A stretch of 63,638 bases of DNA, filler included, from Folioceros fuciformis (lineage: Eukaryota), in NCBI GenBank assembly GCA_049999805.1. It is 4 parts of 3 records of this genome, joined end to end, with 100 filler letters (N's around TTAATTAATTAA, not from the genome) between each part and the next. Parts side by side here need not be neighbours in the genome. Positions count along the whole stretch, not along the records: positions 62,011 to 63,638 come from JBNGIO010006227.1; 3 more parts are not named here. One strand, 5' to 3'. Below, piece after piece: positions 27,685-63,638 of the stretch. Numbering within the stretch: position 1 is the first letter of the stretch; the number at the start of each line of letters is the position of its first letter. Both the position numbers and the translations under genes were made by a program. The notes beneath the pieces are model-generated. The model was not told the DNA's origin. It did no database searches and saw only the letters and a list, made by a program, of their open reading frames with translations.

Positions 27685-28030
27685 TGGTTTGCATTGTCTA
27701 GGTTTTGGATCGGGCTTGCACTGTCTAGGTTTCGGATCGGGCTTGCACTGTCTAGGTTTCGGATCGGGCTTGCACTGTCTNNNNNNNNNNNNNNNNNNNN
27801 NNNNNNNNNNNNNNNNNNNNNNNNTTAATTAATTAANNNNNNNNNNNNNNNNNNNNNNNNNNNNNNNNNNNNNNNNNNNNGAATCAATCTGGTCGCGAGG
27901 CGCTGGGATCAATCCAAAGCCGCGGGCGCCGAATCAATCCGACCAAGAGGTGCTGAGATCAATCCAAAGCCGCGAGCACCGAATCAATCCGGCCGCGAGG
28001 CGTTGGGATCAATCCTAAGCCGCGGGCAGC
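27685..28030. repeat. Short tandem repeats flanking a scaffold gap (27-bp unit on the left, about 50-bp composite unit on the right)
   Basis: gggcttgcactgtctaggtttcggatc repeated before the gap; gaatcaatcc...gatcaatccaaagccgcg repeated after it. Confidence 0.8.
27781..27880. other. Artificial scaffold linker (N44-TTAATTAATTAA-N44)
   Basis: 100-bp gap with a six-frame-stop 12-mer; the same construct occurs at 49378-49477 and 61911-62010. Confidence 0.95.
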
Positions 28031-35397: not shown

Positions 35398-35760
35398 GTG
35401 GTAGGTAAGCCATTTATTATTTGCACATGATGACATTTTGAAAACGATAATGATGTTGAATGGGGCTAGTTCTTGCTTTGGCCCGGCTTTGGGTTGTTCG
35501 ATCTCTTTTCACTTTTCATCTGTTTTTTATAATAAAGAGTAATGGTTCTATGGACTTCACAAACTGGGCTCAGAATAAGAGATACGTATGTGAGAGCTCC
35601 GGAGAAAATCCAAGAGACTTTGGCGACGATAGGTACAAACGTCTTACAGTGCCGAGAGCAGCCGTGATCGGCCTCGCGCACAATGTCAGGGCTCTATGGC
35701 TCACTGGCCACGAATTTGCCTCTCGTCGTCCCGACAGGTTGAGCTCATTTGCTCCCAGAC

Positions 35761-38139
35761 ATGGCTTCGCCAGCGCGACGCCTTTGCTCAAGATTGGGTG
35801 TTCGGGCTCACCCCACTTCAGGTTGTGAAGTCCTGGCGAGCAAAGCCTCCAGGTGCAGCAGTGCAGGGAGCCCAGCCTTTCCACAATCGAGCGAAATTGT
35901 GGGTGGGGACGGGCTTTCCACCGATGGTCTTCGCCCGGAGAGGGAAATGGAGCAGGAGTACTTGTGCCAAGAAGCTTTTCTGGACCCTACCGTGTGGTGG
36001 AACAACAAAAGAAAAAAGACGAGGTCCCGGTCTCCTCAATTCCGACGTAAGGGATCCGGTGAGGTGCTGTGGTTAGACTCTACGTTCAAGCCACCACCTT
36101 GGGTTCATGAGCAGCTTGTTTCCTTGGACATGCACAAGGCCCATGGCGCATCTCCTTCCGAATCGATCTCTCCCGTCAAGCCTCAGCCTGGCAGGCGCGC
36201 GGGATGGGAAATGGAAAGGGGCGTCGTAACGGCTGGAACCGTGAGGATGTTGTGTCAGCAGGGGAAGCTTTCTGACGCCGTTGGAGCCCTGGAATCCCTA
36301 GTGCATACAGATTTGATTATTTCTCAGTCTCTGTTTTACTCCGTGATCAAATTGTGTACAGCTAGGAAGGATTTGGTTGTGGGGCGGCGAGTTCATGATC
36401 TCACTTCCAAGCTTGGGTACGAGTCGAGTGCGTTCTTGGGGAACCATATCTTGCGCATGTATGCATGTGGAGGCAGTCTTCAGGAGGCCATGGATGTGTT
36501 CACCAGGGTGGGCAAGCCAGATATCTTCATGTGGTTTTCCATCATATCTGCCTATGCTAAGCACGGGAAGCCTAATGAAGCCATACAGCTCTACCATGAC
36601 ATGCGCAGGTCCGGAATGAAGGCGAATGGCCACGTGTTTGTAGCTGCCCTCCAGGCTTGTGCATTTGCTGCCGACCTGGAATCTGGCAGGAAATTGCACT
36701 GCGATGTGGTCCAGAGTGGCATTCCGATTAACTTGTTTATTGGCAACTGCCTGGTGGATATGTATGCCAAATGTGGCGAACTGAAAGATGCACGCCAGGT
36801 TTTTGACAGCATGGTCACGAAGGATGTGGTGACAGGGACTGTGCTGATTGCTGGGTATGCAAAATTTGGTGAACTGAAAGATGCACGCCAGGTTTTTGAT
36901 AGCTTGGCCACCAAGGATGTGGTGACATGGAATGCCCTGATTGGTGGGTATGCACAGCAAGGACTTGGGCATGAGGCACTTGTTGTGTATAGACAAATGG
37001 AGGAGGCGGGCCTCTTTTTGGCTGACGATGTTACTTTCGCTTGCCTCCTGAATGCCTGTGGAAGCACTGGCGCCTTACAGAAGGGCAGGCAACTGCACAC
37101 GCAGATTGTGGAAAGAGGACTGCTGGGAAACGTAGTGCTATGCACCTGCTTGGTGGACATGTATGCAAAATGTGGTGAACTGAAGGATGCACGCCAGGTT
37201 TTTGACAGCATGGCCACGAAGGATGTGGTGACGTGGACGGCCCTGATATCTGGGTATGGTACTTGTGATGATGGTCACAAGGCATTATCTTGCTTTGACG
37301 AGATGTTAGTTGCCGGTATTCAGCCTAATGATGCTACTTTTACTTGCCTTTTAGTAGCATGCAGTCATGAGGGACTTGTCCACGAGGGTCTCAAGCACTT
37401 TGATTCCATGACTAAAGAGCATGGCGTCAAACCTACTCTTGAGCACTACAATTGTATGATTGATCTTCTTGGGCGTGCAGGCCATCTAGAGAAAGCTGAG
37501 AAGATGCTATTGTCATATGAGGGACAAAGTGATGTAGTGGGGTTGACATCTCTGCTGAATGCCTGCAGAACCCATGGGGATATAGTGAGGGCCACGTGGT
37601 GCTTTGAAAGCATTGTTAGGCTGGACCCGCAGCGGGCACACGCATATGTGCTAATGGCCAATGTCTATGCCGATGCAGGCAGGTGGACGGATGTAGACAG
37701 GATTGAAACGCAGAGGAGGGTGGCAGGAGCTAATAAGAAGCCTGCGGTGGCGACCATAGAGGTGAATAAGGAGGTCCATAGATTTGTGGTAGGAGAAAGG
37801 AGAGAGGATATTGCGCTTAAGGTGGAGAGCACGAATGCACGTCTGAGGCAGGAAGGAGGCCATGTACCTCACACAAAGTTGGTGCTGAAGCCACTGTGTG
37901 ACAAGGAAAAGGAAGATCTGCTGTGCGGGCATGCTGAGAAGTTAGCTCTGGCGTTCGGCCTCTTGAACACTCCGAGTGGGACACCTCTGGTGGTAACGAA
38001 GAATCTTCTCATGTGCAGTGACTGCCACAGTTCCACGGAGATCATGTCAAGGCTCGAACAGAGGGACATTGTTGTACGGGATGGGCACCGAGTGCATCGT
38101 TTTGCAGCTGGTTGTTGCAGTTGTATGGGCCGAGCGTGA
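35761..38139 (+). CDS. PLS-class PPR protein with E1/E2 and DYW:KP-type deaminase-like domain (candidate organellar U-to-C RNA editing factor), with N-terminal PDF-like motif
   Basis: Single-exon ORF with P-L-S repeats (LVDMYAKCGELKDARQVFD...KDVVTW) and E motifs. DYW domain begins KKPAVATIEV, has HAEKLA and CSDCH zinc ligands, and ends CSCMGRA. Confidence 0.93.
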   Translation: MASPARRLCSRLGVRAHPTSGCEVLASKASRCSSAGSPAFPQSSEIVGGDGLSTDGLRPEREMEQEYLCQEAFLDPTVWWNNKRKKTRSRSPQFRRKGSGEVLWLDSTFKPPPWVHEQLVSLDMHKAHGASPSESISPVKPQPGRRAGWEMERGVVTAGTVRMLCQQGKLSDAVGALESLVHTDLIISQSLFYSVIKLCTARKDLVVGRRVHDLTSKLGYESSAFLGNHILRMYACGGSLQEAMDVFTRVGKPDIFMWFSIISAYAKHGKPNEAIQLYHDMRRSGMKANGHVFVAALQACAFAADLESGRKLHCDVVQSGIPINLFIGNCLVDMYAKCGELKDARQVFDSMVTKDVVTGTVLIAGYAKFGELKDARQVFDSLATKDVVTWNALIGGYAQQGLGHEALVVYRQMEEAGLFLADDVTFACLLNACGSTGALQKGRQLHTQIVERGLLGNVVLCTCLVDMYAKCGELKDARQVFDSMATKDVVTWTALISGYGTCDDGHKALSCFDEMLVAGIQPNDATFTCLLVACSHEGLVHEGLKHFDSMTKEHGVKPTLEHYNCMIDLLGRAGHLEKAEKMLLSYEGQSDVVGLTSLLNACRTHGDIVRATWCFESIVRLDPQRAHAYVLMANVYADAGRWTDVDRIETQRRVAGANKKPAVATIEVNKEVHRFVVGERREDIALKVESTNARLRQEGGHVPHTKLVLKPLCDKEKEDLLCGHAEKLALAFGLLNTPSGTPLVVTKNLLMCSDCHSSTEIMSRLEQRDIVVRDGHRVHRFAAGCCSCMGRA

Positions 38140-45489: not shown

Positions 45490-48400
45490 TTACAAGACAG
45501 AATACTTCCCAGGTTGGGTAGAGCCAGGGAGAGAGATGGAGGCAGATGTGGACTCCTCAAGGATTCGCTTGATCTCAGCCTTTGCCTTTTTCACTGAAGC
45601 TTCCGTGGGGCCTTCAATGAACAAAAACAACTTCCTCTCCCCTGGTGCAGGGTTCTTTCCCGTAGGAAAGTACTGCCCACGAGTTGTTATGGCAGCTCCT
45701 GTCCATTCACTAATCTGCCCCAAAGCATCCTTGTGAGTCACTTTCCAGCGCGCATGTTGAGGAAAATCATTGATTTCTAACTCTGCTTCATAATGCTCTG
45801 TCATCGCATCTGCCTGGATCTTGGCCAGATTGTGTTGCAAATTAAGTGCTGCTGCATACGCAGCAGCCCTCGCTGCTCCGTCTCCCATCGCACTTGCAGA
45901 AGGATTCGGTACACCCATACCATTCGGAAAACCTGTCAGACCGAGACTTGTTATTGCTGTCATGCCTGTAAGCCCTTGCATTCCCACCAGACCACCCATC
46001 ATGCCTGCCATGTTCATGCCCGCAACACCCGTCAGACCTGTCAGACCTGGTATGCCTGACATCATGCCTGGCAAACTATTTGCTTGAAGACTTCTGCTCG
46101 CAGCAGCCTGGGCGGCTAAGAGAGCTGCCTGGAACTGTGGATTGGTTGTAGATGGCTGGCCAGCTTTGGTAGCAGCCGCAAGAGCAGCAGCCTGAGCAGC
46201 TTGAGCTGCTGCCTCTGAAAGATCACCTCCTTGTTTACGAATGCTGCCATCATCTGAATCGGAATCTGACTTGTCTTCATCCTCTTCAAACCCATATTCT
46301 TTGGCCTGAGCTTTCTTTGCAGCCTTCAGAGCCTCATCCTCTTCTTCATTAAACTTAAACCCACTTCCACCATAGCCACTGCCATGTGCTTGCTCTGTAC
46401 CCTGACTGACCTTGGCCAGAAAGTCATCGGCAAGTTTTTTCAAGTCATCAGGAACAGGCTGTTCCGAGAGCTCCAGTGCCTTCACCAAATCAGGTGCATA
46501 TCGCTCTTCATCCACGGAAATAAAAGTCACTGCAACACCCTTCCTACCAGCCCTTCCTGTGCGGCCCACACGATGTACATAATCTTCGTAGTGATTAGGA
46601 ACATCATAATTCACGACTAGCTCCAATTCCTTCACATCCAGGCCCCGGGCAGCCACACTGGTGGCAATCATCAAATTGCACACATTGGTCTTGAAATCTG
46701 CTAACGTTGATTCCCTATCAGTCTGGTCTTTAGCACCATGCAGTGACAAGCAAGGATAACCAGCTTTGAGCAGGTCTCTGAACAGGCTGTCACACTTCTC
46801 CTGCGAGTGCACAAAGATCAAGATTTTCCCCTTCTCATACCACTCACCAAGAAGCTCCAACAACCGGAGAAACCTCTCACTGTCAGGCCGAACCTCTACC
46901 GTTTGTGTGATATCCCTGTTCACGACACTCCGACCACCCACCTGAATCTCAATGGGCTTGGTAAGAACCTTCCGTGCCAACACCTCAACCTGGCGAGGAA
47001 ATGTGGCAGAGAAAAGCACAGTCTGCCGATCTGGCCTGGTGTTCTGCACAATCCTGGTGATTTGAGGTTCAAACCCCATGTCGAACATGCGATCAGCTTC
47101 ATCCATCACGAAGTATGTGACCCTGCGAAGGTTTGTGATCTTGCCAGCACTGGTGCACAGGATGTCAATCATTCTCCCAGGTGTGCACACCACTATCTCC
47201 GTCCCTCGTTTCAAATCACTGATTTGCTGTGCAACGCCAGAGCCTCCATAAACAGGAACACAGCTAAGGCCAAGCACTTTTGAGAACCTTTTGATATCAT
47301 TGTATATTTGCTGGACGAGCTCACGGGTTGGGGCCATGATGAGGCCAATAGGTCCATCTCCTTGGACCAGAGGAGGCTGATCCATAATGTGCCTCAGCAT
47401 GGGCAACACAAAGGCAAGGGTCTTACCTGAACCGGTTTTCGCTATTCCAATGCAGTCTCGACCACTCATGATAATGGGAAGCGCTTGGGCCTGGATGGGC
47501 ATTGGCTTTTCAAACCCTAATTTCTTGATGACGTCTAACACCTTGCTGCTCAAACCAGTTTGATTCCAAGTCTTGACAGCCCGTGGCACATCTTTCCCTC
47601 TAATTTTCAGCTCTAGTTCTTTCCTGGATGCTGCAACCTCCTCTTGTTCCATTCTTGCAATTTCCTTCACTTCAATGTAGAAGTTCTTTCTGAACGGTGG
47701 ATAATGAATCTTAGAGTGATCGACAGGTGCTAGCTTATCGGCCTTGGTCTTCTTGACCCGCTTCAAAAAGTCATCATCCTCTTCATCACCAACAGCGCCA
47801 TCCCCTTCCTCTCTGTCATCCTCCGATGCTGAGTCCTCTCCTGGAATGATCCTCCCTGTTGCATTCCGTGGGTTTCTCTTGGAATATCGTCCAGTATCAG
47901 CCACTCTTCGGTCCTTGAGAGGACGGACAGGTTCCTTCTCAGGCTTAGGCACCTCAGGCACATAGGACTCCATATTATTCAGTTTCTCCACCTCGGGTAT
48001 GACCATAGCATTCATGAATGCATCTAAGGGGTCTATTTCCTCCTCCTGTTCTTCCATTGGCTTTGCATCTGCAGCAGACTCACCGTCAGTGCCCACTTTC
48101 CCCTGCAGTTCTGCATTCTGTGGTGCTGGCACAGCATCTTGCAGCGCCCCTGTCTGTCCAACTGCGGCCACAACTGTCCCCGCTGCAGCATCCGCCTCCC
48201 CCATCACAAGGTCCCCACTGTCTTGGGAAGCCACCTTGGAGTTTTCCTCCCCATCAATTTTCACTGTATCTTCAACTTTGGGAAGGTCCTCATCATCTGA
48301 CTCCTCTCCCTCCAACGTCCATGCCTTCTTTGCATTGTTATCCAGCTCCAGGATTTCCTCTGCATCACCTCTCTTTTTCCGTTCCTCCTCCTCCTTCCTG

Positions 48401-49377
48401 CGACGCAATTCTTGCCACTCTTGCACACGTCTTCTGCGTTTTTCCATTTCCTCGTCCAACTTTCTCTGTTCTTCGTCTGCATCCTCCTCCTCCACATCCT
48501 TCTTCAGTTTCCCTTCACCTTTGTCAGCCTCGTCCTCCCGCCTTTTCCTTTTCCTATCCTTCTCCTGACCATCCTCCTCCGTTTTGTCTCGATCCTTTGG
48601 CCTGTCCCGTTCTCTATCTTTGAGATCCACCACTTCCTCCCTCTTCCTGCGCTTTCTGTCCCGATCCCTATCATCGTCTTCATCCCTCTCCCGTTCCCTA
48701 TCCTTCTGCCTTTCCCGCTCCTTGTCACGATCTCTCCGCTTCTTCTCCTTATCTTTCTCCTTCTCCTTCACCTTCTCCCTTTCCCTGTCGGTTTGTTTAT
48801 CCTTGTCACGCTCCTTAGCTCTGTCCCGATCTCTTTCCTCCCGGTGTCTATCCTTGTCCTTTTTCTCTCTGTCCCTTCCCCTGTCTCCTCGCCCGAGTTC
48901 ATCAACATCAAGTTCCCGTTCCCTGTCCTCTCGGAACTTGTCCTTATCCCTAGCGCGTTCGTCCTTAAGCTTCTCTTTCTCCAGTCTCCTTTCCCTTTCC
49001 TTCTCCTCTCTCAGCTTCTCCTTCTCCCGTTCACGCTCTTCCTTCTCCTTCTTCTCCCTCTCCAGTTCCATCCGAACCCTTTCCCTCTCGCGTTCTTCAT
49101 CTCTCAACCTCTGCTCCTCTCTCTCCCTCTCCAGCTGCTCCCTGAGCTCCCGCTCTCTCTCCTCTCGCAGCTCCCTCTCCTTCTGTTCCCTTTCCTGCTG
49201 CTCCTTCTCTGCTCGGAGCCTTTCCCTCTCCCGCTCCTCCCTCAACCTCTCCCTCTCCCTCTGCTCCTTCTCCTCCCTCAACCTCTCCCTCTCCCTCTGC
49301 TCCTTTTCCTCCCTCAACCTTTCCCTCTCCCTCTGCTCCTTCTCCTCCCTCAACCTCTCCCTCTCCCTCTGCTCCTT
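45490..49377 (-). CDS. DDX46: DEAD-box RNA helicase 42 / Prp5 / DDX46; 5' end lost in assembly gap
   Basis: Uninterrupted ORF with Q motif (GFEKPMPIQ), AKTGSGKT, PTREL, DEAD, SAT, HRVGRTGRAG, DPLDAFM and C-terminal KH-like ELEINDFPQ..RWKVT. RE/RD-rich N-terminus runs into the N gap. Confidence 0.96.
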   Translation of the reverse strand, partial: KEQRERERLREEKEQRERERLREEKEQRERERLREEKEQRERERLREERERERLRAEKEQQEREQKERELREERERELREQLEREREEQRLRDEERERERVRMELEREKKEKEEREREKEKLREEKERERRLEKEKLKDERARDKDKFREDRERELDVDELGRGDRGRDREKKDKDRHREERDRDRAKERDKDKQTDREREKVKEKEKDKEKKRRDRDKERERQKDRERERDEDDDRDRDRKRRKREEVVDLKDRERDRPKDRDKTEEDGQEKDRKRKRREDEADKGEGKLKKDVEEEDADEEQRKLDEEMEKRRRRVQEWQELRRRKEEEERKKRGDAEEILELDNNAKKAWTLEGEESDDEDLPKVEDTVKIDGEENSKVASQDSGDLVMGEADAAAGTVVAAVGQTGALQDAVPAPQNAELQGKVGTDGESAADAKPMEEQEEEIDPLDAFMNAMVIPEVEKLNNMESYVPEVPKPEKEPVRPLKDRRVADTGRYSKRNPRNATGRIIPGEDSASEDDREEGDGAVGDEEDDDFLKRVKKTKADKLAPVDHSKIHYPPFRKNFYIEVKEIARMEQEEVAASRKELELKIRGKDVPRAVKTWNQTGLSSKVLDVIKKLGFEKPMPIQAQALPIIMSGRDCIGIAKTGSGKTLAFVLPMLRHIMDQPPLVQGDGPIGLIMAPTRELVQQIYNDIKRFSKVLGLSCVPVYGGSGVAQQISDLKRGTEIVVCTPGRMIDILCTSAGKITNLRRVTYFVMDEADRMFDMGFEPQITRIVQNTRPDRQTVLFSATFPRQVEVLARKVLTKPIEIQVGGRSVVNRDITQTVEVRPDSERFLRLLELLGEWYEKGKILIFVHSQEKCDSLFRDLLKAGYPCLSLHGAKDQTDRESTLADFKTNVCNLMIATSVAARGLDVKELELVVNYDVPNHYEDYVHRVGRTGRAGRKGVAVTFISVDEERYAPDLVKALELSEQPVPDDLKKLADDFLAKVSQGTEQAHGSGYGGSGFKFNEEEDEALKAAKKAQAKEYGFEEDEDKSDSDSDDGSIRKQGGDLSEAAAQAAQAAALAAATKAGQPSTTNPQFQAALLAAQAAASRSLQANSLPGMMSGIPGLTGLTGVAGMNMAGMMGGLVGMQGLTGMTAITSLGLTGFPNGMGVPNPSASAMGDGAARAAAYAAALNLQHNLAKIQADAMTEHYEAELEINDFPQHARWKVTHKDALGQISEWTGAAITTRGQYFPTGKNPAPGERKLFLFIEGPTEASVKKAKAEIKRILEESTSASISLPGSTQPGKYSVL

Positions 49378-49477
49378 NNNNNNNNNNNNNNNNNNNNNNN
49401 NNNNNNNNNNNNNNNNNNNNNTTAATTAATTAANNNNNNNNNNNNNNNNNNNNNNNNNNNNNNNNNNNNNNNNNNNN
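49378..49477. other. Artificial scaffold linker (N-TTAATTAATTAA-N)
   Basis: Same linker; truncates the DDX46 5' end. Confidence 0.95.
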
Positions 49478-49682
49478 CCGGCGGGCTGGCTGCAGCAGCA
49501 GAACGGCTAGGCGCAGGTAGGCGACCCAGCAGAGCATGCAAATAAATAGAGGTTGACGGATGTAGGCCATTCGGGCGTCGGCATGATCTAGCTGCAGGCA
49601 GGCTGGTGGTTGAGATCTGGCAAGGGGGGTTTACTGGCTGGAGGTGGTGGCTGAGGGGTCTAGCCAGCGGCCCAGCCCGCCC

Positions 49683-49880
49683 CAGCTGCGAGCAGACAGC
49701 GGGTTAGCCTGTGGGCGGCCTGCCTGGCTAGATCTGGGAGGCCAGGCCGGCCGGCAGGCGGCCCGGAGGATGGCCGGGCCAGCAGCTCCCCAACTGCGAG
49801 CAGACAGCGGGTGAGCCTGTGGGCGGCCTGCCTGGCTAGATCTGGGAGGCCAGGCTTGCAAGTAGGCGGCCCGGAGGATT
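49683..49880. repeat. GC-rich direct duplication (about 110-bp unit x2), probably within an LTR/retroelement
   Basis: ctgcgagcagacagcggg...gcctgtgggcggcctgcctggctagatctgggaggccagg occurs twice. Confidence 0.75.
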
Positions 49881-50297
49881 GCAGGGCTGTGGGCCGAGGG
49901 GGCCATCCAGCCTGGGTCTGCACATCCCTACCTCAAGGGCCGCAAGTGAAGGGCTGCTGTGTTTGAAATCCAAGAGTGAGACATGGTGGTGAAGGACTGA
50001 AGTGTTGGAGTGCTGGAGTAGAGAGCCGTTGTGCTGGAGTGGGGGCTGAAGATGATGCTGAGCCCTCGTTTAGCTAAGGTGGTAGTTGTTATTGGAGACG
50101 AGGTTCTGATCTTTTTGCTGTAGTGTGGTTAGGTCTAGGGACCGGTTGATAGTTAGGGTCAAATTAGGGCAGAGTGGGGGAAGTTGTAGAAAACCTTGAC
50201 ACTGGTTCACTCCCTTGGGAGCGAACCCTAGTACTACGACGATAACCAGGGGGAAGTGTGGCCCTTGGTGGTTCTTGGGTGCAAGTTCCACTCCACA

Positions 50298-53200
50298 AAA
50301 CCCCTTGGCACACAATCTTGCTTTGTAACGGGCTATGTGCCCGTCATCATTTAGCTTGTGTTTAAACACCCATTTACAGGTGATAGCCTTCCTATTTGCA
50401 GGTCGAGGAACTTGACGCCAAGTGCCATTTTTTATGAGACTATTATACTCATCATCGACAGCAAATTTCCATTTAGCTTTGTCTGGGCCTGTCAAGGCCT
50501 CAGCAAGAGTAGCGGGTTTGAGAGGAAGTGCTGGAGGGGAGGAGACAATTGAAGCTGTATGTCGTTGAAAGTCAATGCTAGCATATGGAGGTTCCCTCCA
50601 GTCGGAAGGTGGAGGTCTGTGACGAGAAGAACGACGAAGTCCAGCGTCTTCATCTTGAGGAGGGTCATGGGCAACAGCAACGGCAGGTATATACAAGTCA
50701 TCAGTAGCTGGTAAGTCAGCTGGCAAATTGTCTGGGACGTTTTCAATGTCCATTTCTGCATCGGCAAATAAGCCATTGAGCCCAAATGGATCAGGATCTA
50801 AGATCAGTTCTTCTACTGCAACGGGTTGTGTAGGATCCTGGTCCTCGTCAACAGCAGGTAGATACTGATGCTGGGCAGGGTTGACACCAACAGGGTCAAA
50901 GGCATTGTTATGGTTCTAGTTCTTTGCTGGTAAGTCAAGGATAGGCATAGCTGGCCCGTCAGCATCCACATGATATAAGGACAGAAGACCTATGGAGCCT
51001 TCTACATCACTGGCTTCTTCTGGAGTGGATGGTTGCTCAAGGGAATTATTCTGAATAGCAATGTGAGCAAATTGCAAAGACTCCAAGAAAGTGACACTCC
51101 GTGCCAGAACTAGTTGTCGGGTAGCAGGGTCAATAAGCTTGTAGGCTTTCATAGTTTCACTATAGCCAACAAAAACTAATTGTCTTGATCGTTTGTCTAA
51201 TTTCATGCGTTTCTTTGCAGGAACATAAGCATAGGCTTTTGAACCAAAGATTCTGAGATGAAGCAGGCTGAGCTTCCGCTTCCAGAAAATCTCAAAAGGA
51301 GTCATAGCAGCAAGAGAACTTATGGGCAGTCTGTTAAGGATGTAAGTAGCAGTAACTACGGCTTCTGCCCAATATGGAGACGAGAGGCCTGACCACAACA
51401 ACATAGCACGCGTCATTCCCATCAAGGTTTGGTTTTTGTGTTCGGCAACACCATTTTGCTGTTGCATATAGGGCACAATTAGTTGGTGAATTATGCCCTG
51501 CTCAGAGAATAGGTTAGAGAATGACTAATTAGCGAATTCTGTGCCATTATCAGATCTGAAGATTTTAAGCAAGCAGCCTGTTTGATGCTGTGCGGTAATG
51601 AGCCAGTCTTGAAACAAGTCAAAGGTTTTGTTCTTTCTCTTCATGGGAAAAGTCCAAGCAAACCTGTTGTACTCATCTGTGATGGTAAAGTAGTAATCTG
51701 CCCCTCCAAGTGAAGAAACCTAAAGGCAGGCAAATATGTCAGCATGCACCAGGTCTAGGAGTTGTGAAGATTGATGAGCTGGGGCTGTGGGAAAGGGGAG
51801 CTCCTTCTGCTTGGCTAGAGCAAAAGTCTCACAAAGGGGCAACTCCTTCAAACATTTAGGTAATGGCTCACGATAACAACCTTCTTTGCTAAGGGATGCC
51901 TAGGTGTGTCTGTTAACATGACCCAATCGGGCATGCCATAGAATAGATTGTTGGACAGCCGTCACGTTGCGTACACTAGTAGAATAGGCATGAGTTCTGC
52001 TGCCAAGAAGACAAGGAAAGTCTAAATGATACAGGTCGTTGTAGAGGAAAAAAACTTTAGACACTTCCATTTTGAGTGACAGAATGAGCAGGCTGCGATT
52101 TTTTTGTGAAGGAACTAGCAAATCGGCTTAGTATGTGAATAAGATAGGGGTATTTATACCCAAAACTGTCCTTGGCCTTTGGGTGTTTGGGATATCGAAG
52201 ACCGAGATCTGGAAGTGGGTGAGCAAGGGTGTCCTTGGCCCTTGGTGGTTCGGGGACACTGAGGTGTCTATATANNNNNNNNNNNNNNNNNNNNNNNNNN
52301 NNNNNNNNNNNNNNNNNNNNNNNNNNNNNNNNNNNNNNNNNNNNNNNNNNNNNNNNNNNNNNNNNNNNNNNNNNGGGCTAGCTAGTTGTGGACTTTGGCA
52401 AAAAAAGGATGGGTTGAGGTGACAGGGCGACGGTAGCCAGTGGGGCAACTGTCGTGGAAGGGCGACCGGTGGTAGTCCAACTGGCAGTAGTGAGAGAAAA
52501 AAACGGCCAGTATATAAATCCTAAGGGGAAGTCTAGAGGGGAACTAAGTCAGTATTCGAAACGTGAGGGGAAGTAACCCGGGAGCGTGACGATGGCTGGA
52601 AGAGAAGCAGACACTGAGGCAACAGGACGGGCCGAGTCGAGAAGTGAGCTCAGCGAGAGAGGAGGGAACCGCAGAAGCCGAAGCGCGAGGAGGAGGAGGT
52701 TGGCAGGATGAGGTCGCGCCCTGAACAGCTGCCTGGAGTGACAGTACCCGAGCAGGAGGGGGAACCTCCTGTCCCCCGGATTGACATGCTCATGTGGCCC
52801 AACATGGAGCATTGGCGGGTTAGGGCAGGAGGGCTGGCGGGCGAGTTGGGTCTGGGTTTCATGACCTAGAAGCGGAACCACGCAGCACCACAGTTGGTCA
52901 GGGAGTGCGCCCTAAGGTTGAGGGAGCCTGTCCGTGAGGAGGGGATCAGAGGCAGACCGTAGGAGTAGAACTTGGAGCTGGTGAGGAGGGTGTATGGCCG
53001 TCACCAACGAGAAGAGGGAGGACTGGTGCTGGAGTCCCTGAAGAAACGGGGAGGCACAGGAGACGCTGAAGGATTGCTCAAACCAGGCACAAAGAAGGAG
53101 GCTAACGGGTGGTTGGTTCGCGACATGGTGAGCCCGCAGCTAATGGGTCTAGCCAGGTGGTTTCTTAGTTTTTTCCAGGTTCGCAAACAGGATTATCTAT

Positions 53201-56200
53201 CTGACCAGATGCTCCTGTTTGTGCATAAGGTAGTGAAGGGGACCAGGATTGATTGGGGAAGAATTCTGTATGCCAGGATGGAAGAGGAGAGGCAGAATTT
53301 GACCCTGCCCTCTCCTCAGCCCTCGATGATTTTCCCGTTTCTAGTTCATATTTATAACTATGCTAACCTGGTGTTGGAAATGGAGGTGTTGGCCTCACTG
53401 CACATGTGGAGGCCAATCAGGGATGTAAAATGGAAGCTTGCTAAGCCAGTGAAGGCCGACTCCAGTAGTTGGGAGTCGGGGAGTGGGGACAGCTTGGAGA
53501 AGGAGGTTCCCGTCAGGCCTAAGAAGACGACAGCAACTCAGAGGAAGACCCCTGCCAAGGGCAGACGGGTCAGCGGACAGAGCACAAGAGGAGGAAGTAG
53601 GCCGGAGACATCGAAGACAGCCCTGGAGCGAACTGAAGGTCAGATAGAGGAGCGGGTTGTACAGGAACAGGAGGCAGAGCTCCCAGAGTAGGCGAAGGAC
53701 CAGCCCTGGGGACCAAGGAAGAAACAGCGGAGGCGCCTGTGCCTAGGCGCTCCAGGAGAGTGACCCGCACCAGAAAGACAGAGCCGGAGGAGGCAACAGT
53801 GGGACGGGTGGAGGACCTTCAAGTACCCCAGAAAGATGGGGAGCAGACAGCCCAATGTAGCCCAAGGGAGGAAGGGGTAAGCACCTCCTTTATGAAAGAA
53901 GGTCGGGTTGTGCTGTAGTATAAGGAGGAGGCCTCCTATGTGCCAGGTCTTTATGTGGAAGGGGCCAGAGTTTTTAAATTGTTTCTGTATGTACATATGG
54001 GTATAAGAGGGACGCGGGGCTACGGCCTGCAACTGAGGACCCGCAAGGGACTCTCCCACTACAGCTGGTGGATGACAAGCCTGCCCCATTGCTATGCGGA
54101 GGCAGTCCTGGAGGAGCTAACGGAAGAAGAGGCCCAACGATGGGTGGAACGGGAGCCTGTTGCCATCCTCAGTAACCAAAGGAGGAGGGGGGACAGTGGT
54201 TCTCATTGGCGGGACCCACCTGCGCCGCCGCTAGAAAGGTCCAGCAGCAGTAGTGACGTGTAGAGGTCCTGTGGGAAGATCTGCCCAATCAGCGGAGGGG
54301 CGGGAGAGCGAGGAGGACCAGTAAGAGGAGGCGCGCGAAGACCCAGGGGAAGGCGCCAACGGCGTGGAGAGAGGCAATAGTAATTGCAGGCTAGAATAGT
54401 ATTTTTTTAGAATGCTTTTACTTGGACCTAAGTCGCTCGGAATTTAAGAGTGCCGACTGACCCCTGACAGACTTTATGGCGGAAAGACCGCCACCATCGT
54501 GTATAAGAGGCTGGTTTGAGTCCCTGGAACATTAGCAAAAATCAGCCCAACCACCCAACCTTGTAGGAGTCTAGCGATTGTCGTTGCTGGACAGGAGGTC
54601 CAGGCAAGCGAGCGCACGCAACAATCTGGGGGTGTGGGTGCAGGTGGTGGATGCTCCGTGATCGAGCTAGGGGACAAATTGGGAGGAGGAACCTCGCTGA
54701 GTGGGAGATGAGCTCGCCACCTATCCTCGGGGCGATCAGGTGGAGTGGTGAAGACGTCGGAGCCGAATCCGCGAGTTTGGAGTGGAAGTGAGTATCCCTT
54801 CCCTTAGCCCCAATGTTTTAGCATTCCTTAATTCCATAGGAGAAGGCCCGGAGAGGTAGGACCGAGTGTGAAGTCGAGAAAATGTGAACAAGTGAAGAAG
54901 CAAGATTGAGAGAGACAGCCAGTGTGAGTGCGTGATGTTGAACAGTTGTCAAGACAGGACCACGCGACTGGGGGTGTGTATGTGAGAAGTAAAGAGTGGT
55001 GGCACAAATACGAGATGGCTGCATGGTGGAAGCGGCTGAAACCCATGTGAGGGAGGAGTGGACTGGAGACTATAATTAAAAAGGGGGATTTTGGAGGCGT
55101 CGCGGAGGGGGCGCTGCGAACCAAGGGCAAGTGCCCAGAGTGTGAGGGAAAGAGGAACCATGAAAGAGGAGTCGCTGAGTCGGAGAGATCGAGCGCCGAC
55201 AAGACCCTGGCGCGTGTGTAGCTGAAAGACAATTGAGAGCAAAACGGCCTGGGTTCGGGCTTGGGTTGCGTGAATAGATTGGGGATTGTACTGCGAGAGG
55301 TCCCTTCACGACTTTCTGAGTGCAGATGTGTGCACGACGAACGCTGGTGCGTTTCAGTCGAGGCGCTGGAGAACTGGCAAGTAAGGGCGGAGGTCTGTGA
55401 GTTCGCCGGTGAGCGCGACTAGAGGTAAGTTGCTGGCGGTTCGGAAGGCAAGGATTGGTAAAGTAAGTATTAGAGGGTAAACCCAGGTTAGAGGAGAGAG
55501 GGAGAGACTTAGAGAGAGTGAAGGAGAGAGAAAGTGGGACCCATTGAGGTAGCCAGATGGGCGACTGTTACCCGGAAGGGAACGGGAGTTGTTCAAAGGG
55601 AAACGGTAGTCCTGAGCAGAAGTAGTCGTAGGGGCGACGGAGTGATCGAGGCGATTGAAAGAGTGGCCAGAACTGGGGTCGTCAAGAAGACAGGAAGGGT
55701 AGAGGCATCCGGGTGTGACTTGGGTAGCTGGGACGTGAGGAAGCAAGGGTCCTAAGGGGCTAGGTACCCCTTAGGTAGTAACTGATTTTGAGAGAGAACC
55801 TGTTTAGTGTGGACCTTAACCCTTAACTGATTTTGAGAGAGAACCTGTTTGTGTGGACCTTGCGGTACCACCGGGTACAATATTTCACCCCACAGTCATC
55901 CTCTGGTAGTGCTTTAAAAACACAATTAGAGGGCAAATTTGGCCTAACAAAGCAGCAAGATCCCTCATGAGCTGTCAATAGGAAACCATGTTGCTTGAGC
56001 AACCGACTCAAGGACAGCACGTTCTTTGCCATTCTGGGGACGTACATAACATCTGCTAGGGTTAAGGTGGAGCCATCAGTGAGTCTAAAATTGCATGAAC
56101 CTTGGCCTAGAATTTGTAGACTAGTGGAATTTTGTTCATCCCCGAGGTACACCCCATCAACGTCAGAAGTAGGGGTAAGAGATGCAAATAGAGATTCATC

Positions 56201-57940
56201 CTGACAAATATGGGCAGTCACCCCAGAATCTAGGTACCAAGCTGCCTTATCACCTGCTAAGGTTGAAAGACAGACTGTTAATATTTTAACCACTTGCTTG
56301 TTGGATTCTGAAGGCTTGTCCCTAACTACAACATTGGTAGTAGGTCGGGATGGTTTACGAGGCTCTCCGGCCTTCTTTTTTCTACACTCATTGGCCCAAT
56401 GGCCAGGTTTACCACACCAGTTACAGTTACCAAGGCGTTTGGAAGAAGGGCCAGCATCGCTGCATTGTCCTTCATTACGGGGACCCTAGTTGAAGCCCTG
56501 ATGTGGCTGTATCCGCATTTTTTCTTTTTGTGCCCGTCGTCCAGGGAAACCAGTCCGTACTCTGTCAGCTTTGGTTTTCCCAGACCCTGACAAGAGCCTA
56601 CTTTGCTCTTCCTGGAAGAGAGCCCCTATCACCTCGTCTAAGTTGAGAGTAATTTGTCGTCCTGCAACTCCAGCAGCCCTAGTCTGTCGGATGGGGACAT
56701 TGTCTGCACATACAAAGTTCTGGTAACTGGGCGGAGGGCTGGTGAGCAATTGTGCGATCACGTCCACCTCGTCCATAATAGTACTTAGAGAGGTAAGTTG
56801 TGCCCTAAGATGTCTAAGCTTGCTGGTGTGAGCAAGTACTTTGTCTCCTTCCCACATTTGAAGTCCATAGAATTCCATACGCAAAGTACAGAGTGTAAGG
56901 ACATTGTTTATTCTGTACTGACCTTCCAATTGTGCCCAGATTTCATTGGCCTTGGTGAGAAATTCGATCTGTGGAATAAGATCTTCAGTCAAGCCAGAGA
57001 CAAGAAGGGCATTACCAATGCTATTCGCATGAGCCCACTTGTCTTTTTCTCTTGTGAGGGCTGTAACAGGGGGCTCTGGAATAGACCCATCTACTCTGGA
57101 ATAGACCCATCTACCTAAACCCAGGGTTGGAAGATACAATCCCACGGCTGGCTGCACCATGGACAAGGGTTCAGGATGATCAGTAGCTGGAATTCCCTGA
57201 GAAGAAGCTCCTGGCGCTCACCAATATGATCCAGTTGTCCATTGATTTGATCAATTTTTGCAATTACAGTTGAATTTTGTTGCACAATTTGTGCGTCCTT
57301 CATAAGGAGCACATTAGTCAACTGGTCCTGCAAATTGTTAGCGCGCCAAAGCAGGTAATCATTTTCTACAACATCATCCAATTTGTGAATTCCTGGAACA
57401 ACAGATCCTTGCTGTAATTCAAGCAAATTAGGCTGATGTGAGTGTCGTTTTTGTGCGGATATATCTGTAGAGTTACGGCGACTACGCCTGCGATGAGGCA
57501 TGCTGCAGAAGACGTGCAACAATCATATTTGACATTATTCAGACATTGTGACTGACAGTTGTGTGCAGGAGGAGCAATCCGGGCTTGAGCATAGTTCCTA
57601 AATTATTTAGAAATAATTGTGTGACTTTGTTGAAGTTCCTATTGCTCTTCCTCTACAAAAGTGTTAACATTTGTTCTCTTAATAAAATGAGTCATTGGAA
57701 TTACTGGGATTCCATATATAATTTCGTGAGAAATCTCTCATGCTCCTACGCAGCGGAATTTAACAGGATCGGAGGTTGAAATCTAGATCTCTCCAGAATC
57801 TCGATATGAGGTCCATCCTTTGTGATGATTTTAATGGCAACATAATTATAGTTACCATCAAATGTAGGATGATGTCAGTCCATTCATGGAACTGATTACC
57901 ATCCATACATAATCATAACAAGCCTTGCTCTAATACCATG
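50298..57940 (-). mobile_element. Degenerate Ty1/copia element, split by a nested insertion and truncated in RT by another LTR end
   Basis: Minus strand: PBS tggtattagagc (tRNA-iMet-like; plus-strand gctctaatacca 57927-57938) next to an LTR CA end; gag; zinc knuckle CNWCGKPGHWANEC; protease WYLDSGVTAH; LWHARLGH; integrase QQNGVAEHKNQT; RT start KWVFKHK...RYKARLCAKGF. Confidence 0.85.
52040..55894 (+). mobile_element. Nested LTR-type insertion (TG...CA) carrying a decayed non-gag/pol ORF
   Basis: TSD gtcgt (52035-52039) / gtcat (55895-55899). Removing it rejoins host copia as KALPEDD-LYHLD. Contains broken ORF segments 52593-54263 and an N gap. Confidence 0.72.
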
Positions 57941-58284
57941 ATATAAATGGAGAGCAAGATAGATGAATAACCATAAGGCAAATAGAAACAATAATAATAC
58001 AAAGTAAAGTAAAGAGTGTATATTATCTATACTAGGCACCCCTTCGCTAAGGTGACCCTTGAATAATCAAACTAAACTTAACTAACCACAACTAACCAGG
58101 GGTAACCCCTAAGCAAGTGAGGTTACCCCGTGAACAGGAAGGGTGGTCACGCTGGAAGCTGAAGTGAAGGAGGCAAGAGGAGGCAAGGAGGTGAGCGCGG
58201 TGGCAGGGGGCGTGACAGAAATTTCAGCGGAGGAATTTGTATAAGCAACGGCTACGGCAGTGAAGAAGCCAGAGGGAGCGAAGG

Positions 58285-59569
58285 GTGAGAGGTGAGGCAG
58301 AGCTTTTGCCGGTGATTCAGGAAGGAGGTGAGGCGAGTGGTGAAGGTAGGACCAACTTGGTACTTCAGAGTGCTGGGGAGGAGATGTTTAAGGTGCAACT
58401 GTCTGCCCTGACGGTAGCGTCAACAGAGTGTTGGGAGACAAGCGCTGTGAGTGGAAGGTCTAGCTCGCCAGCAAGTCTACCTCCAGCAAAACTCAAGAAG
58501 GAGGACGTCGAGAGCGGGAAAGCGGGTTCGTCGGTGGGCAGAGTTTCAGCAGAGTGCCAAGAACAGGAGGAAGGAAAGGCGGTGGCAGGAGAAGACAGGA
58601 TGGGCAAGAGGGAAGGTGAGAAAGAAAAGGGGAGTGACGCGCAAGCTGGAGGGGAGCGACAACTTTCTGTGGTTTTGGGCATAGGAGAGGGTTCGCCATT
58701 GACAGATCAATTGGAGGAAGCGGCCGTGTTTGTGCCCATGCTCAAGCGTGGGCAGTTATTTTTGTTTAGTTCTTCTTTGCAGGAGGAAAACGATTCAGGG
58801 GAGAAACCGGACAGCGAACCAGCAGAAGTTGAAAAACCACCTGGTGAAGAAACTGAAGGCAAGGTTGCGAGAGAGGAAGAAGAGGTGGAAAGCGAAGGGT
58901 TGAGAGGACACCTTCTTGAGAGAGGTGCCAAGGAGCTAAAGGTTGACATCGAGTTGCGGTGGAGTCTTGTGGAGGCTCACAAGTTCTCTAGAGAAGATTT
59001 GGCTCAATTACGGGCTAAGGCAGAGGAGAACGTGGACAGACTTAAAGTGGAAATTGTGGCGCGAGCTGTTGAGAGAGCTCAGCTTGCGAAAACACTGAAG
59101 AATCTACGAGCTGAAGAAAGAGTAGCGGCGTTCTTTAGAGGAGATTATTTCCACGGAGCTGTTGCGAGGGGAAGGGGCTACTGCTGTTTTTGGCACTCTT
59201 AAAGGCAAGCAGTTCGATGTGGCATACCAAGTCATAACGCAATAGTATCAACAACTCAAGCGAGGAGAACAAGTGCAGACAGATGGCGGTGCTGGAAGCA
59301 AACGGAAGGGCGAGGAAGGGCCAAGGAGCGTGGAGGACTACCACAAAAGGGATCCTCCCAAAAGAAGTTCCTATTACCAAGCAGGGAGAGGAAGAGCTTA
59401 TCGACAGGGTTTCACGAGATGGAAGGTTGGTGAGGGTGTCGTGACAGGGGATCTTCCGGTTAGAAGGTCCAATAGGCTAAACTTAGAAAAGTTTTCTTCT
59501 GGACCTGCTCCCACTGGGGCTGATATAGAAGTGGTGAGCAGCAGTAGTGAGGAGGATGCAGTAGCGTGA
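58285..59569 (+). pseudogene. Glu-rich / coiled-coil ORF remnants, probably a retroelement accessory ORF
   Basis: 305-aa and 98-aa frameshifted ORFs, purine-rich, with no recognisable catalytic motif, lying among TE sequence. Confidence 0.4.
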
Positions 59570-60192
59570 AACAATTTGGTTAGCAAATATAGCTGAAGTT
59601 GTCCTAAAGTGGGTGAGATGGGAAAACAGCTTATAATGAAGTGTGATTAAAGTTTGTTTGTGAAAATTGTTTAAGACCAATAAGCGAGTTTATCATTATT
59701 AGTTTGTTTCTAGATGTTGAAAAGTAGTCGGTGAAATGCTGTGAAAATAAGTGTGGAAGAAGCTGGGCAGGAAAAACTCAATAGGGTGAGGAGNNNNNNN
59801 NNNNNNNNNNNNNNNNNNNNNNNNNNNNNNNNNNNNNNNNNNNNNNNNNNNNNNNNNNNNNNNNNNNNNNNNNNNNNNNNNNNNNNNNNNNNNCCTTATA
59901 ATAGGGTGTTCCAGACCGAGTAGTTGGAGTCAACTTAAAGTATTTTGTGATGACCTGATAGTGCTTGGAAGACACTTTTCAGATTTGAAAACCTTAGTGG
60001 CGTGTTTAGAAAGAAAAGAGGAAGAAGTGAACTTAGTGTGGAATGCTACAAGGCGTCCAATTTTTGAGCTAGTATATTCTACACTGTTTCCGTGTTGGTT
60101 TGGATACAACCTAGTGTAAGACTTTATTAGCTGTAAAAGTTATTAGACTCTAGCGTGATAATTCTCGTTTGAATTGGTGCTGAACTTTAAAC

Positions 60193-61910
60193 ATGAGGAG
60201 ACCTATGACCAAAGGTGTCAGGGTGACGCGGGTGAGTGTCAAGCGGGCTGGTGTGCTACCTAAGTCGAGAAGTGGGACTGATAGTGTAAAAATTGGAAGA
60301 GTTGAAAAGAGAGTGATGGAAGATAAGAGTTCGAACAGAGGATTTAAGAAAAAGGCTGGGAGGCCAAAAATAAATAGTAAAGGAGGAAACATCAAGGGTC
60401 TGGGGGGGAGTTATATCTCATGCGGTGCGTTGGATGAGGAAGCAGGAAATTCGCATAGGGCGAGTGTTTTAGGTAGAGAGATGGAGGGAGAAGTTGGAAA
60501 TGCAAATCTTAGCAGGGACATAGATAAGAGATATAAAACATCTGTAGGAGTAGAAGCAAGAGAAGGGAGACTACAACTGTCTGACGAGGAGTGGAGGCAT
60601 GTGTGCAAGGAAAGAGGGTTTGTGATCAAACATAAAGAACTTGTTATAGACGTACAAAACCGGACCGTGGAGCCTATGGAAGTGAAAGGACAACCAGGAG
60701 AAGTAAATGACGTGGGGAAGTTGGTGAGAAGACCAGAAAGCCAAATGTTGAGCTTGTCGACTAAGAAACTTTTGGATTGGAAAGAAAGGGCAGAGGGGGA
60801 GTAGTATTGCCTGCGAAAAGTGAGAAGTATTCTGGGCATCCCAAGTCATCGGTGTCTATTAATCAGTTAATGTGCATGTTTTATATGATTAAGTTGCAGG
60901 AGTGTGGAGGTGAGAACATTGAATTAGATCCTAGATATGAATTTACTTTGTTAGGGAACTTGTTGTGTGGAGATGCTTACAAGTTTTATTTGTGAAGTTT
61001 CAAGGATTTGGTGGTGACCAATAAGCATGTTGAGCCAGTAAAAGAATTCTTTATTCGGTTGGAAATGAGATTTCCATCGGTTAATGCTATGAGGATAGAA
61101 GAGTTAGCAAACTTGAGGAGAAAGCAAACTTGAGGAGAAAGCCTGATGAAACGTCACTTATGTTTTGTAATCGGACTAGCCAATTGATGACAGATACGGG
61201 GATGCACAATGAGATGGAAGTGTGTTTTAAATACATTTGCAATCTGGATGAGGATATCAAGGAGGATGTCTTTAGAGAGTTGATGGTGCTATATCGTAAA
61301 ACATATACGTTGGATCAAGTATTCCCAATTGCAGAGAAACATGAGCAGGCGAGAGCATTACTAAAGACTATGGAAAGAAAAGTTGGGACAAACAGAAGAG
61401 GAGGCGCATTTTCAGCGTGAACGATTGTGGTGAGAAGATGCATGGCAGAGCAGTGAAGGTGATGGAACAGCAAGTGAGTAAGAGAACGCAGGTGTCTCAA
61501 AATGATTTGATTGGTTGTATCCGAAGTGTGTTAAAGTTGGGAGTCAAGGTGGGGGTGAGCGAAGCAAAAATTTGAGAACTTTTGCAGGACGTGATGGTGG
61601 AGTGGCCTGATGCAAGTAAAAGCTGAGCAAGACACTTTCATTTTGTCTTGATAGTAATATGCAAAATAATGACGACAAAGCAAAAGGTAGACCAGGAATT
61701 GCATTTTTGGACAATGGTGGATGTGAATTTTTGATAGAAGTTTTTGCACCGAAAAAGGTATTGATAGATTCGGGAGCGCAACCTACGTTAATTCATTTCA
61801 ACACAGCGTATGCTATGGGATTGAGAAAGGGGGATATACATGAGACAAGATGAAAGATAAGGATGGCCAATGGAGGTTTGGAGGTAGTGATGGGAGAGAC
61901 TAAGGAAAAA
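60193..61910 (+). pseudogene. Decayed retrotransposon gag and aspartic protease
   Basis: Gag-like segment EPVKEFFIRLEMRFP...LRRKPDETSLMFCNR and protease KVLIDSGAQPTLI, with multiple stops and frameshifts. Confidence 0.7.
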
Positions 61911-62010
61911 NNNNNNNNNNNNNNNNNNNNNNNNNNNNNNNNNNNNNNNNNNNNTTAATTAATTAANNNNNNNNNNNNNNNNNNNNNNNNNNNNNNNNNN
62001 NNNNNNNNNN
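61911..62010. other. Artificial scaffold linker (N-TTAATTAATTAA-N)
   Basis: Same linker; separates the decayed gag/protease from the protease-DNMT ORF. Confidence 0.95.
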
Positions 62011-63638
62011 AGAATAGAGCAGAGGATTTTGTTCTCTGACTCTGATGATGATGAGGCGTTTGGCATGATGGCGGTGCGCAAGAAAAAGAAAAAGGCTGTT
62101 GCTGACTTTGGTGAAGGCGTCACTGCGAAGGGAGTGCTGGAACGGGAATCGACCAAGATGCCGGAGAGTTTCCGGCAGGTCGAGGGAAACTCCACGACAC
62201 AGAAGGTGTCAAGATCAGGTCGAGACGTTGAGGCGTTGCTGGACAAGGCCATGGAGGTGCCTGCAGTAAGTCTTGTGGATCTGGGAGTGAAGGGCAACAA
62301 CTTCAAAAACATCATGCGAGAATGGCTGAGAAAGGAGCTTGAATCCGCAGGATCTCTCCCTAGTATGGCCAGTTTGTGTGGCGAGCATCTGATGCCAGAG
62401 GCGCGAGGTGGAGGAGGTGTTGCCATGATTGATAACACGGGACGGCACGTGACCTTTGATGGCTATGCTCCAGTAAACGTACTTGTAGACACAGGAGCGG
62501 ATCCGGTACTGCTGGGAGCACGGGTGCAGGAGGCACTAAAGCTGTACGGACACAAGCTCGTTCCGAGCGACGTGAACATCACCACCTCTGCAGGTACCAA
62601 GGAACAGGTACTGGGAATGACGAGGAGGCCCGTGAAGATTGAATTGAAGCCTGGCACGAAGGATGCCAGCATCGTTGAAGTGAGATGTTTGGTCACCAGT
62701 GCGAAGACATATGATGTCTTGCTGGGGTCGGACAGAACTCACCGTCCTGCCATGGGGGTTGATCCCTTGCACGCTGAAGCTTTCTACAGACCATTCTGGT
62801 GGAGAGGAGATTTCACGCATGTTGCACGAATTCCTCTAAGGATGAATAGGAGTGGTGGCAAGAGCAGGACGAGGATGACAGGCAGCACCATGATTGCCCA
62901 CAGTGCTCAGAGTGAACATCGACATGAGATGTGGGAGGAAACGCAGGAGTTATCCTCTCTGGAGATGCCAAAGCCAAGAGAGCAGAAGGGTGTGCTTAAG
63001 GTGGTGCGCTCAGAATATTTGGATCAAGCGAGGGTTCGAGAGAACCAGCGAAGGAAGGAGGATCGACCGTGGAATCTCACAGACACATGTCCTGAGAGGT
63101 CGATCCCAGGTATGGGGCCTGCCAAGTCGGGAGATCGACGCATCGACAATGCTCTAGTACGATGGAAGGTGGGCCCTCAAGGCATCCATTTGTTGGAGCT
63201 CTGCTCGGGAATCAGCAGTGGCCTGGAAGCGGTGTTGCAGTGTGGCGTCAAGATACGGCAATATACCTGCGTGGAGAAGGATGAGAAGATTCGAGCTGTC
63301 GCTAGGGGTCGAATCCTCAGGTTCTGCAAACAGTATCCAACACTACTGAGCGAGGAAGCAGTTCGAGGCTGTCAGAGCAGGCTGCCCACAGACGTGAACC
63401 TGGTTGGGAAGCGGCAGCTACAAGCCTTGTCAAGCCCAGTGGATATGCTGATCGCGGGATGGGAATGCAAGACATTTTCGACAGCAGGCAGAGGCAACGG
63501 TGAAGGCGTTTCGTTGGCTGCTGAGCTCGCACGAATCACGCGAGAAGTCCAGATTGCGAATCCACGATGTTGGTACATTCTGGAGAATGTGTGTGCAGCC
63601 ATGGACAAACGTCCAGCTGTTAGGGCCCTGTATGAAGA
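62011..63638 (+). CDS. Retrotransposon polyprotein fragment: retropepsin-type aspartic protease fused in frame to a C5 cytosine DNA methyltransferase domain (open at both ends)
   Basis: Manual frame-1 translation has no stop from 62011 to the window end. Protease VLVDTGAD (Asp codon 62488) and YDVLLGSD. DNMT motif I LLELCSGISSG (63190-63222), II VEKD, III LPTDV, IV DMLIAGWECKTFSTAG (Cys codon 63466), VI YILENV (63574-63591). Confidence 0.88.

Follow-up and report, generated by a model that had tools for sequence, protein, structure and literature searches.

The window analysed here is a stretch of 63,638 nucleotides, spacers included, filed under the name Folioceros fuciformis (assembly GCA_049999805.1), in which four contigs lie end to end (1-27780, 27881-49377, 49478-61910 and 62011-63638, boundaries read from the spacers). 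Each of the three spacers (27781-27880, 49378-49477 and 61911-62010) consists of 44 N, TTAATTAATTAA and a further 44 N, and features separated by a spacer do not lie next to one another in the genome. Our subject is the last contig in its entirety (JBNGIO010006227.1), 1628 bp with no flanks. Its plus strand carries from 62011 to 63638 a 542-codon frame, open at both ends, for a fragment of a gag-pol-type polyprotein, as judged from the contig boundaries, the translation and shuffled sequences. Read from its amino terminus, this fragment appears to lead from the last part of gag through a retropepsin and a linker into a DNMT3-like cytosine DNA methyltransferase (DNMT), of which the first half is present. 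Because a separate contig starts at base 62011, the window sequence upstream of that base has no physical link to the frame.

Translation of the contig in frame +1 gave 542 residues with zero stops, while the other five frames contained 7-29 stops each. In 2000 shuffles of the 1628 bases the longest open frame had a mean of 136 codons and a maximum of 328, and a chance origin of the open reading frame (ORF) was rejected on this comparison. A preliminary description of this DNA had drawn attention to an unbroken frame of more than 540 codons, which holds good; it had noted that the frame was missing from the ORF track for want of a stop within the window, to which the correction must be added that the frame is open at both ends because a separate contig ends there on both sides. 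The coding sequence may continue beyond the contig: by eye, from the aligned-contig output, 30 letters past 63638 add nine further codons without a stop, and a contig of run X3 reaches 1384 bases past the same point.

The first 140 residues (62011-62430, plus strand) are rich in lysine and acidic residues and presumably represent the C-terminal end of gag. They match no Pfam family, and two of the relatives described below, P0002 and P0003, align from approximately residues 48-84. No zinc knuckle was found inside the contig; fuller relatives have a zf-CCHC domain upstream of the protease. Residues 141-235 (62431-62715, plus strand) form a retropepsin with the catalytic residues D160-T161-G162-A163 (D160 at 62488-62490). 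The Pfam family Asp_protease_2 matches exactly this interval (E 8.3e-07, 30.1 bits against a cut-off of 24.3), and YDVLLGSD, a flap/hhG-type motif, lies at residues 234-241 (Y234-D241). The retropepsin named in the preliminary description is therefore real by two measures, a family score above its cut-off and the presence of both motifs. Beyond it, the segment 62716-63141 (plus strand) begins, in the consensus of an alignment that we call A2, with a conserved post-protease extension, a YRPxW block that runs to about residue 281, and then becomes a poorly conserved linker up to residue 377. Alignments of relatives to the window extend through residues 281-304, and the linker is gapped when it is aligned with proteins of Calypogeia and Klebsormidium.

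The remainder of the frame, residues 378-542 (63142-63636, plus strand), belongs to a DNMT3-like C5 cytosine methyltransferase, of which the contig end leaves only the N-terminal half; the assignment was made by hhalign, by profile matches to PDB and by motifs. Two profiles were used, A1 built from 26 relatives with the window excluded and A2 from a second alignment with the window included. Residues 378-541 aligned to A1 with an hhalign probability of 99.9 and E 9e-35. When A1 was compared with PDB it matched DNMT3A (E 1.1e-25), DNMT3B (8.5e-23), M.HhaI (5.6e-16), tobacco DRM (6.9e-12) and DNMT2 (5.8e-07), and among its 57 PDB matches at E<=0.1 there was no entry for DNMT1. A2 also found DNMT3A (E 4.8e-20), together with DDI1-like retropepsin domains (E 1.4e-4). 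The window protein searched against PDB as a single sequence returned nothing at E<=1; it was the profile searches with A1 and A2 that found DNMT3A. A homologue query of the ESM Atlas returned only low-score DNA_methylase clusters, without taxa.

Motif alignment placed motif I, LELCSGISSG, at residues 395-404 (63193-63222, plus strand), motif IV, AGWECKTFS, at residues 482-490 (63454-63480, plus strand, with Cys486 at 63466-63468) and motif VI, ENV, at residues 525-527 (63583-63591, plus strand), while VEKD (motif II) and DV (motif III) lie between motifs I and IV. The contig stops 15 residues past ENV and motifs VIII-X fall outside it. The series I, II, III, IV, VI had been put forward as canonical from the outset, and the alignments uphold both its positions and its order; motif IV itself is noncanonical, with Glu replacing the Pro of the usual Pro-Cys. 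A regular-expression scan of 176 relatives found motif IV in 124 of them, in the form (W/F)EC in 69, xPC in 49 and WSC in 6. Glu in motif IV is thus a trait of much of the family and not a lesion, because 69 of the 124 carry (W/F)EC. The Glu-Cys form is conserved across Closterium, Mesostigma and those relatives that bear a reverse transcriptase (RT); Klebsormidium has FPC at this position.

The relatives came from an exhaustive phmmer scan of the window protein against 1.84 billion representatives, which found 532 at E<=1e-3 and 134 at E<=1e-10. Among the 155 that were retained, 137 have similarity to the DNMT part of the window protein and 53 to its protease part; 35 are similar to both, and in 35/35 of these the protease lies upstream of the DNMT. 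Word-indexed protein searches at the 'longer' and 'near' lengths returned nothing, which is weak evidence by the search's own rating, and two scans for the DNA context of the relatives in JGI metagenomes yielded no confirmed locus. A fuller architecture is that of P0028, in which zf-CCHC, protease and DNMT precede RT, RNase H and integrase and the RT matches that of yeast Ty3 (E 2.3e-91); P0172 has the same domains, its protease being recognised via its similarity to that of the window. The earlier proposal of a retroelement polyprotein with a DNMT downstream of its protease is thus upheld by the domain order here and in 35/35 relatives. The accompanying suggestion of an LTR/Gypsy-like element (LTR, long terminal repeat) with its DNMT between protease and RT is seen in P0028 and P0172 with their Ty3-type RT, but the contig in the window ends inside the DNMT.

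Relatives that are collinear with the window in having the protease and then the DNMT come from Mesostigma viride, Klebsormidium nitens, Coleochaete scutata, Closterium NIES-53/54/68 and Calypogeia fissa. In the leafy liverwort Calypogeia fissa, a contig of 46.8 Mb encodes the collinear protease-DNMT protein CAM6085511.1 (E 3e-28, 27% identity), and the K. nitens protein GAQ93235.1 (zf-CCHC, protease, DNMT) is collinear from the protease to motif VI (E 4e-24, 25% identity). The closest relatives are P0002, with 43% identity, and P0003, with 61% over residues 84-281. A quickly built maximum-likelihood tree (38 rows, protease to DNMT) groups the window with P0002 and P0007 (SH-aLRT 93) and places it outside the clades of Closterium, Klebsormidium and Mesostigma; its backbone is weak, and eight rows in which the DNMT comes after RNase H and before integrase were omitted from it. 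By sequence, the contig is a member of a streptophyte Gypsy-DNMT3 family.

The contig is represented many times over in the data set X1, where 50 contigs align to it, 9 of them at 99% identity or above, 8 at 95-99%, 14 at 90-95% and 19 below 90%; X1 therefore displays a multi-copy family with graded divergence. Exact pieces over 62782-63490 have a word depth of 383-473 against 5-12 in the diverged pieces, a measure that is uncalibrated for copy number. The differences between copies carry two signals, both to be taken as hints only since they derive from 40 listed differences, with 39 more not among them. Third codon positions account for 23 of the 40 (binomial p 0.0014), with 20 differences synonymous and 20 nonsynonymous, which fits copies that diverged under purifying selection, while coding capacity mattered. 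Changes of C>T or G>A make up 19, and 10/19 are at CG sites, which hold 162 of the 873 cytosines (19%); this fits a CG-methylated repeat.

Both the integrity of the frame over 542 codons and the enrichment of differences at third positions would also be expected of any selected gene, and one may ask if the contig derives from a host gene, or from a domesticated single-copy fusion of a protease with a DNMT3, and not from a transposable element (TE) at all. We regard this as very improbable given the dozens of diverged copies, the exact pieces at a depth of 383-473, the lack of introns and the gag zinc knuckles, RT, RNase H and integrase that the ORFs of the relatives contain.

Word depth in X1 is not uniform along the contig. 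A step of roughly 50-fold occurs at about 62781, in X1 only (X3, X4 and X5 are without it), and in one diverged X1 contig 62048 is followed directly by 62808, so that 759 bases, the protease with them, are skipped without loss of frame. The step can be read in either of two ways: the sequence before 62782 is different in most X1 copies, or the protease part is broken into pieces that fall below the filter. The step and the skipping contig are also what one might see if mis-assembly had fused the protease half of one repeat to the DNMT half of another. Hardly any credence can be given to such a fusion, because the step is crossed in X3, which is from another study, by a 694-base contig that spans 62668-63361 from the protease end into the DNMT, and in X4, from another organism, by a contig at 62655-827; moreover, the frame is continuous across both halves, the Calypogeia and Klebsormidium alignments are collinear with it and the same order of domains recurs in 35/35 relatives.

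The host may be sought in the genes of the other three contigs. The first contains an ATR kinase gene (UME, M-HEAT, FAT, HEAT_ATR and PI3_PI4_kinase domains; 3042-9322, plus strand) with an unusually long unbroken exon of 1198 codons. The second contains an RH42/PRP5 helicase gene (45490-49377), whose best full-length named matches are in liverworts and mosses at 76-81% identity, with lycophyte and fern at 76% and no query-covering match above 81%. It also contains an intron-less gene for a PPR-E-DYW protein of 798 residues (35743-38139, plus strand). The deaminase domain of this protein opens with KPAVATIEV in place of the canonical PG box and closes with CSCMGRA in place of the canonical DYW, and we take it to be of the DYW:KP type. 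That form of the domain is associated with the U-to-C RNA editing of hornworts, lycophytes and ferns, and its presence makes a hornwort host plausible. The ATR, PPR-DYW and RH42 genes bear out the land-plant origin that had been assumed for the rest of the window, and the host of these contigs is possibly a hornwort, or at any rate a land plant of bryophyte grade, to judge from gene content.

Residency of the element in such a plant was assessed from sequencing runs. Words of the contig were found in six of the nine runs listed, four of which are from one labelled organism (three studies) and two from a second, the latter belonging to one of those same three studies. In the four same-organism runs the shares of words found were 0.83, 0.81, 0.58 and 0.33. 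The three studies are dated 2017, 2023 and 2025, and contig matches there are 99-100% identical; even X5, a skim assembly of 5.2 Mb, contains three pieces with 0-3 differences. GC content at third codon positions (GC3) in the frame is 0.574, close to the values for the PPR (0.55) and RH42 (0.54) genes. The best reading of these indirect data is most probably that of a resident multi-copy plant repeat.

Taken together, these findings make it likely, in our judgement, that the contig is a fragment of a Ty3/Gypsy-type polyprotein of the Gypsy-DNMT3 kind, from a multi-copy family that resides most probably in the nuclear genome of a bryophyte-grade plant, possibly a hornwort. Beyond the contig would come the remainder of the DNMT and after it RT, RNase H and integrase, as in the fuller relatives, and the polyprotein would be cleaved by its own protease. 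The DNMT may act during or just after reverse transcription, methylating the complementary DNA (cDNA) or the new insertion de novo at CG. We infer this step because a DNMT3 of Symbiodinium methylates CG in yeast and because the authors of that work proposed it (PMC5890265).

Several observations weigh against this reading. The Pfam family DNA_methylase (PF00145) scores the half domain (residues 455-527) at 20.1 bits (E 4.7e-4), below its cut-off of 22, so that of the two profiles by which the preliminary description was to be checked, the retropepsin one passes its threshold and this one does not; relatives with a fuller domain exceed the cut-off (P0030 at 56.7 bits, P0032 at 58.4 bits), and the methyltransferase call therefore rests on the profile comparisons described above, which are stronger than a Pfam match though indirect. 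Catalytic competence is uncertain because motif IV of the window combines Glu-Cys with Lys after the Cys, a position at which 13/13 covering relatives in a 22-row alignment have Gln. For this copy the window sequence contains neither RT, RNase H and integrase nor LTRs or DNMT motifs VIII-X, and the 'intact copy' of the preliminary description gives way to 1.6 kb, with two thirds of the element missing. Neither RT nor integrase was seen in the ORF of P0005 or of P0012, the closest long relatives, and P0002 and P0003 are uninformative on the host. Summed depth in X1 is 0-95 in the 5' part (62011-62780) and 407-809 in the 3' part, and because filtered records leave holes in the aligned-contig depth, the number of copies that bear the protease is uncertain. 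No RNA run was listed among those with words of the contig, and that X3 represents RNA is a guess only. When all four contigs were compared within the window, no nucleotide similarity was found between them; the 1628-bp contig is an orphan with no base joined to plant sequence, and its GC content of 0.537 and CpG observed/expected ratio of 0.72 are somewhat above the 0.47-0.49 and 0.51-0.60 measured in the other three.

The lack of linkage and the difference in composition raise the question of whether a genuine Gypsy-DNMT3 fragment has come from a contaminating or associated organism, such as an unsequenced streptophyte alga that lives alongside the plant. Epiphytes are common in samples of bryophytes, and streptophyte algae supply 11/12 of the relatives that have an organism name. 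The second labelled organism in the same study yields 99%-identical pieces at a depth of 3-4, which could be library carry-over. We nevertheless consider this source unlikely. The same-organism runs of the 2017, 2023 and 2025 studies contain sequence that is 99-100% identical, and an exact-piece depth of 383-473 in X1, together with survival in the 5-Mb skim, would be hard for a minor contaminant to achieve. The window copy is only 25-29% identical to the named algal relatives and lies outside their clades, and the GC3 of the frame resembles that of plant genes. Land plants can host the family, because the collinear relative in the liverwort is encoded on a chromosome-scale contig of 46.8 Mb. 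As for bacteria, a prokaryote genome scan with the window protein gave 14 pattern matches, none of which was confirmed, and a bacterial origin was rejected.

Elements of this kind are already known. One is KnitGypsy-Dnmt3 of Klebsormidium nitens, a Gypsy element whose Pol ORF includes a DNMT3 (de Mendoza et al. 2018, PMC5890265). KnitGypsy-Dnmt3 and the element in the window are alike in having an intron-less DNMT3-type C5 methyltransferase in a Gypsy polyprotein ORF, in being multi-copy and in showing signs of purifying selection, expressed there as Ka/Ks <0.2 and here as an excess of third-position differences (PMC5890265). They are unlike in that the host of the window element is probably an embryophyte. 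The comparison at the sequence level was made with GAQ93235.1 as a K. nitens protein, its identity with the annotated KnitGypsy-Dnmt3 copies being unconfirmed: it is 25% identical to the window protein, which sits in another clade with P0002 and P0007 (SH-aLRT 93) and has WEC in motif IV where Klebsormidium has FPC.

Retrotransposon DNMTs are also described from Symbiodinium, where SymbioDIRS-Dnmt3 and SymbioLINE-Dnmt are treated as an independent acquisition, the DNMT3 of SymbioDIRS methylates CG de novo in yeast and methylation of cDNA upon reverse transcription is proposed by the authors (PMC5890265). Both resemble our element in that a retrotransposon encodes the DNMT, and the SymbioDIRS enzyme supplies the sole experimental backing of the mechanism proposed; the Symbiodinium elements differ in being DIRS and LINE elements rather than Gypsy, without the retropepsin-DNMT arrangement. 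In profile matches, host DNMT3A/3B and plant DNMT3/DRM2 share the catalytic fold and motif order of the window enzyme, with no domain rearrangement. The window enzyme is unlike these host enzymes in that it is without a PWWP or ADD domain or the plant companion domains, is fused to a retropepsin in a TE polyprotein and has Glu for Pro in motif IV.

A second architecture was seen in P0034, P0036 and P0057, which are metagenome-derived and encoded on ENA/JGI contigs: here the order is protease, RT, RNase H, DNMT and integrase, followed in two of the three by a PHD finger. Their DNMT is homologous to that of the window (E 1.1e-14 to 2.8e-17), as is their protease, and they are unlike the window element in that the DNMT lies between RNase H and integrase and not between protease and RT, and in having the PHD finger after the integrase in 2/3. 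This arrangement suggests that the DNMT module has moved within or between Gypsy polyproteins.

In print, retrotransposon DNMTs of the green lineage are confined to a charophyte alga (PMC5890265); a 2026 preprint lists only 'streptophytes (Gypsy-DNMT3)' with that citation (10.64898/2026.05.21.726589), and an opinion paper describes such transposons as absent from land plants 'such as tracheophytes' (PMC6338049). We found no land-plant Gypsy-DNMT3 in the literature searched, although the supplements of PMC5890265 and PMC12344493 may list further hosts. An embryophyte host would thus probably extend the range of a family whose kind is already established.

A retrotransposon that bears the silencing enzyme of its hosts is a striking turn in the conflict between host and transposon. 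If the attribution of the host is true, the bryophyte family and the Calypogeia fissa relative would together move the boundary of these elements into the embryophytes, and the family would be much wider in streptophytes (Mesostigma, Coleochaete, Closterium) than its single published host indicates. Land-plant systems, some of them transformable, would then be available for testing a TE-encoded DNMT3. A more far-reaching interpretation, which we regard as possible but somewhat short of probable, is that the contig represents a young, high-copy and still-selected Gypsy-DNMT3 family in a hornwort-like bryophyte which, taken with the liverwort copy, would reflect carriage or repeated transfer of retrotransposon DNMT3 enzymes across streptophytes, from Mesostigma-grade algae to land plants. 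Its enzymes, mostly of the Glu-Cys form, would amount to a second, TE-encoded source of de novo methylation in land-plant nuclei.

Other repeats occur in the window. An Rfam search of the window gave no match. Copia remains occupy 50070-57217 of the third contig (minus strand; Retrotran_gag_2, zf-CCHC, Pol_BBD, SH3_retrovirus and RVT_2 domains), and a Copia-type gag, also recognised by its domains, lies at 28287-29026 of the second (plus strand); no nucleotide similarity was found between these two. At the end of the third contig, and not linked to the polyprotein described above, tblastn revealed a diverged retropepsin fragment of a related element (61668-61904, plus strand), which contains a stop at 61851-61853 and is truncated where the contig ends. 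The ORFs upstream of it (60193-60804 and 61130-61420) match no Pfam family. The fragment itself is 32-42% identical to the window protein, P0002, P0005, P0012 and P0030 (E 1.4e-4 to 5e-9).

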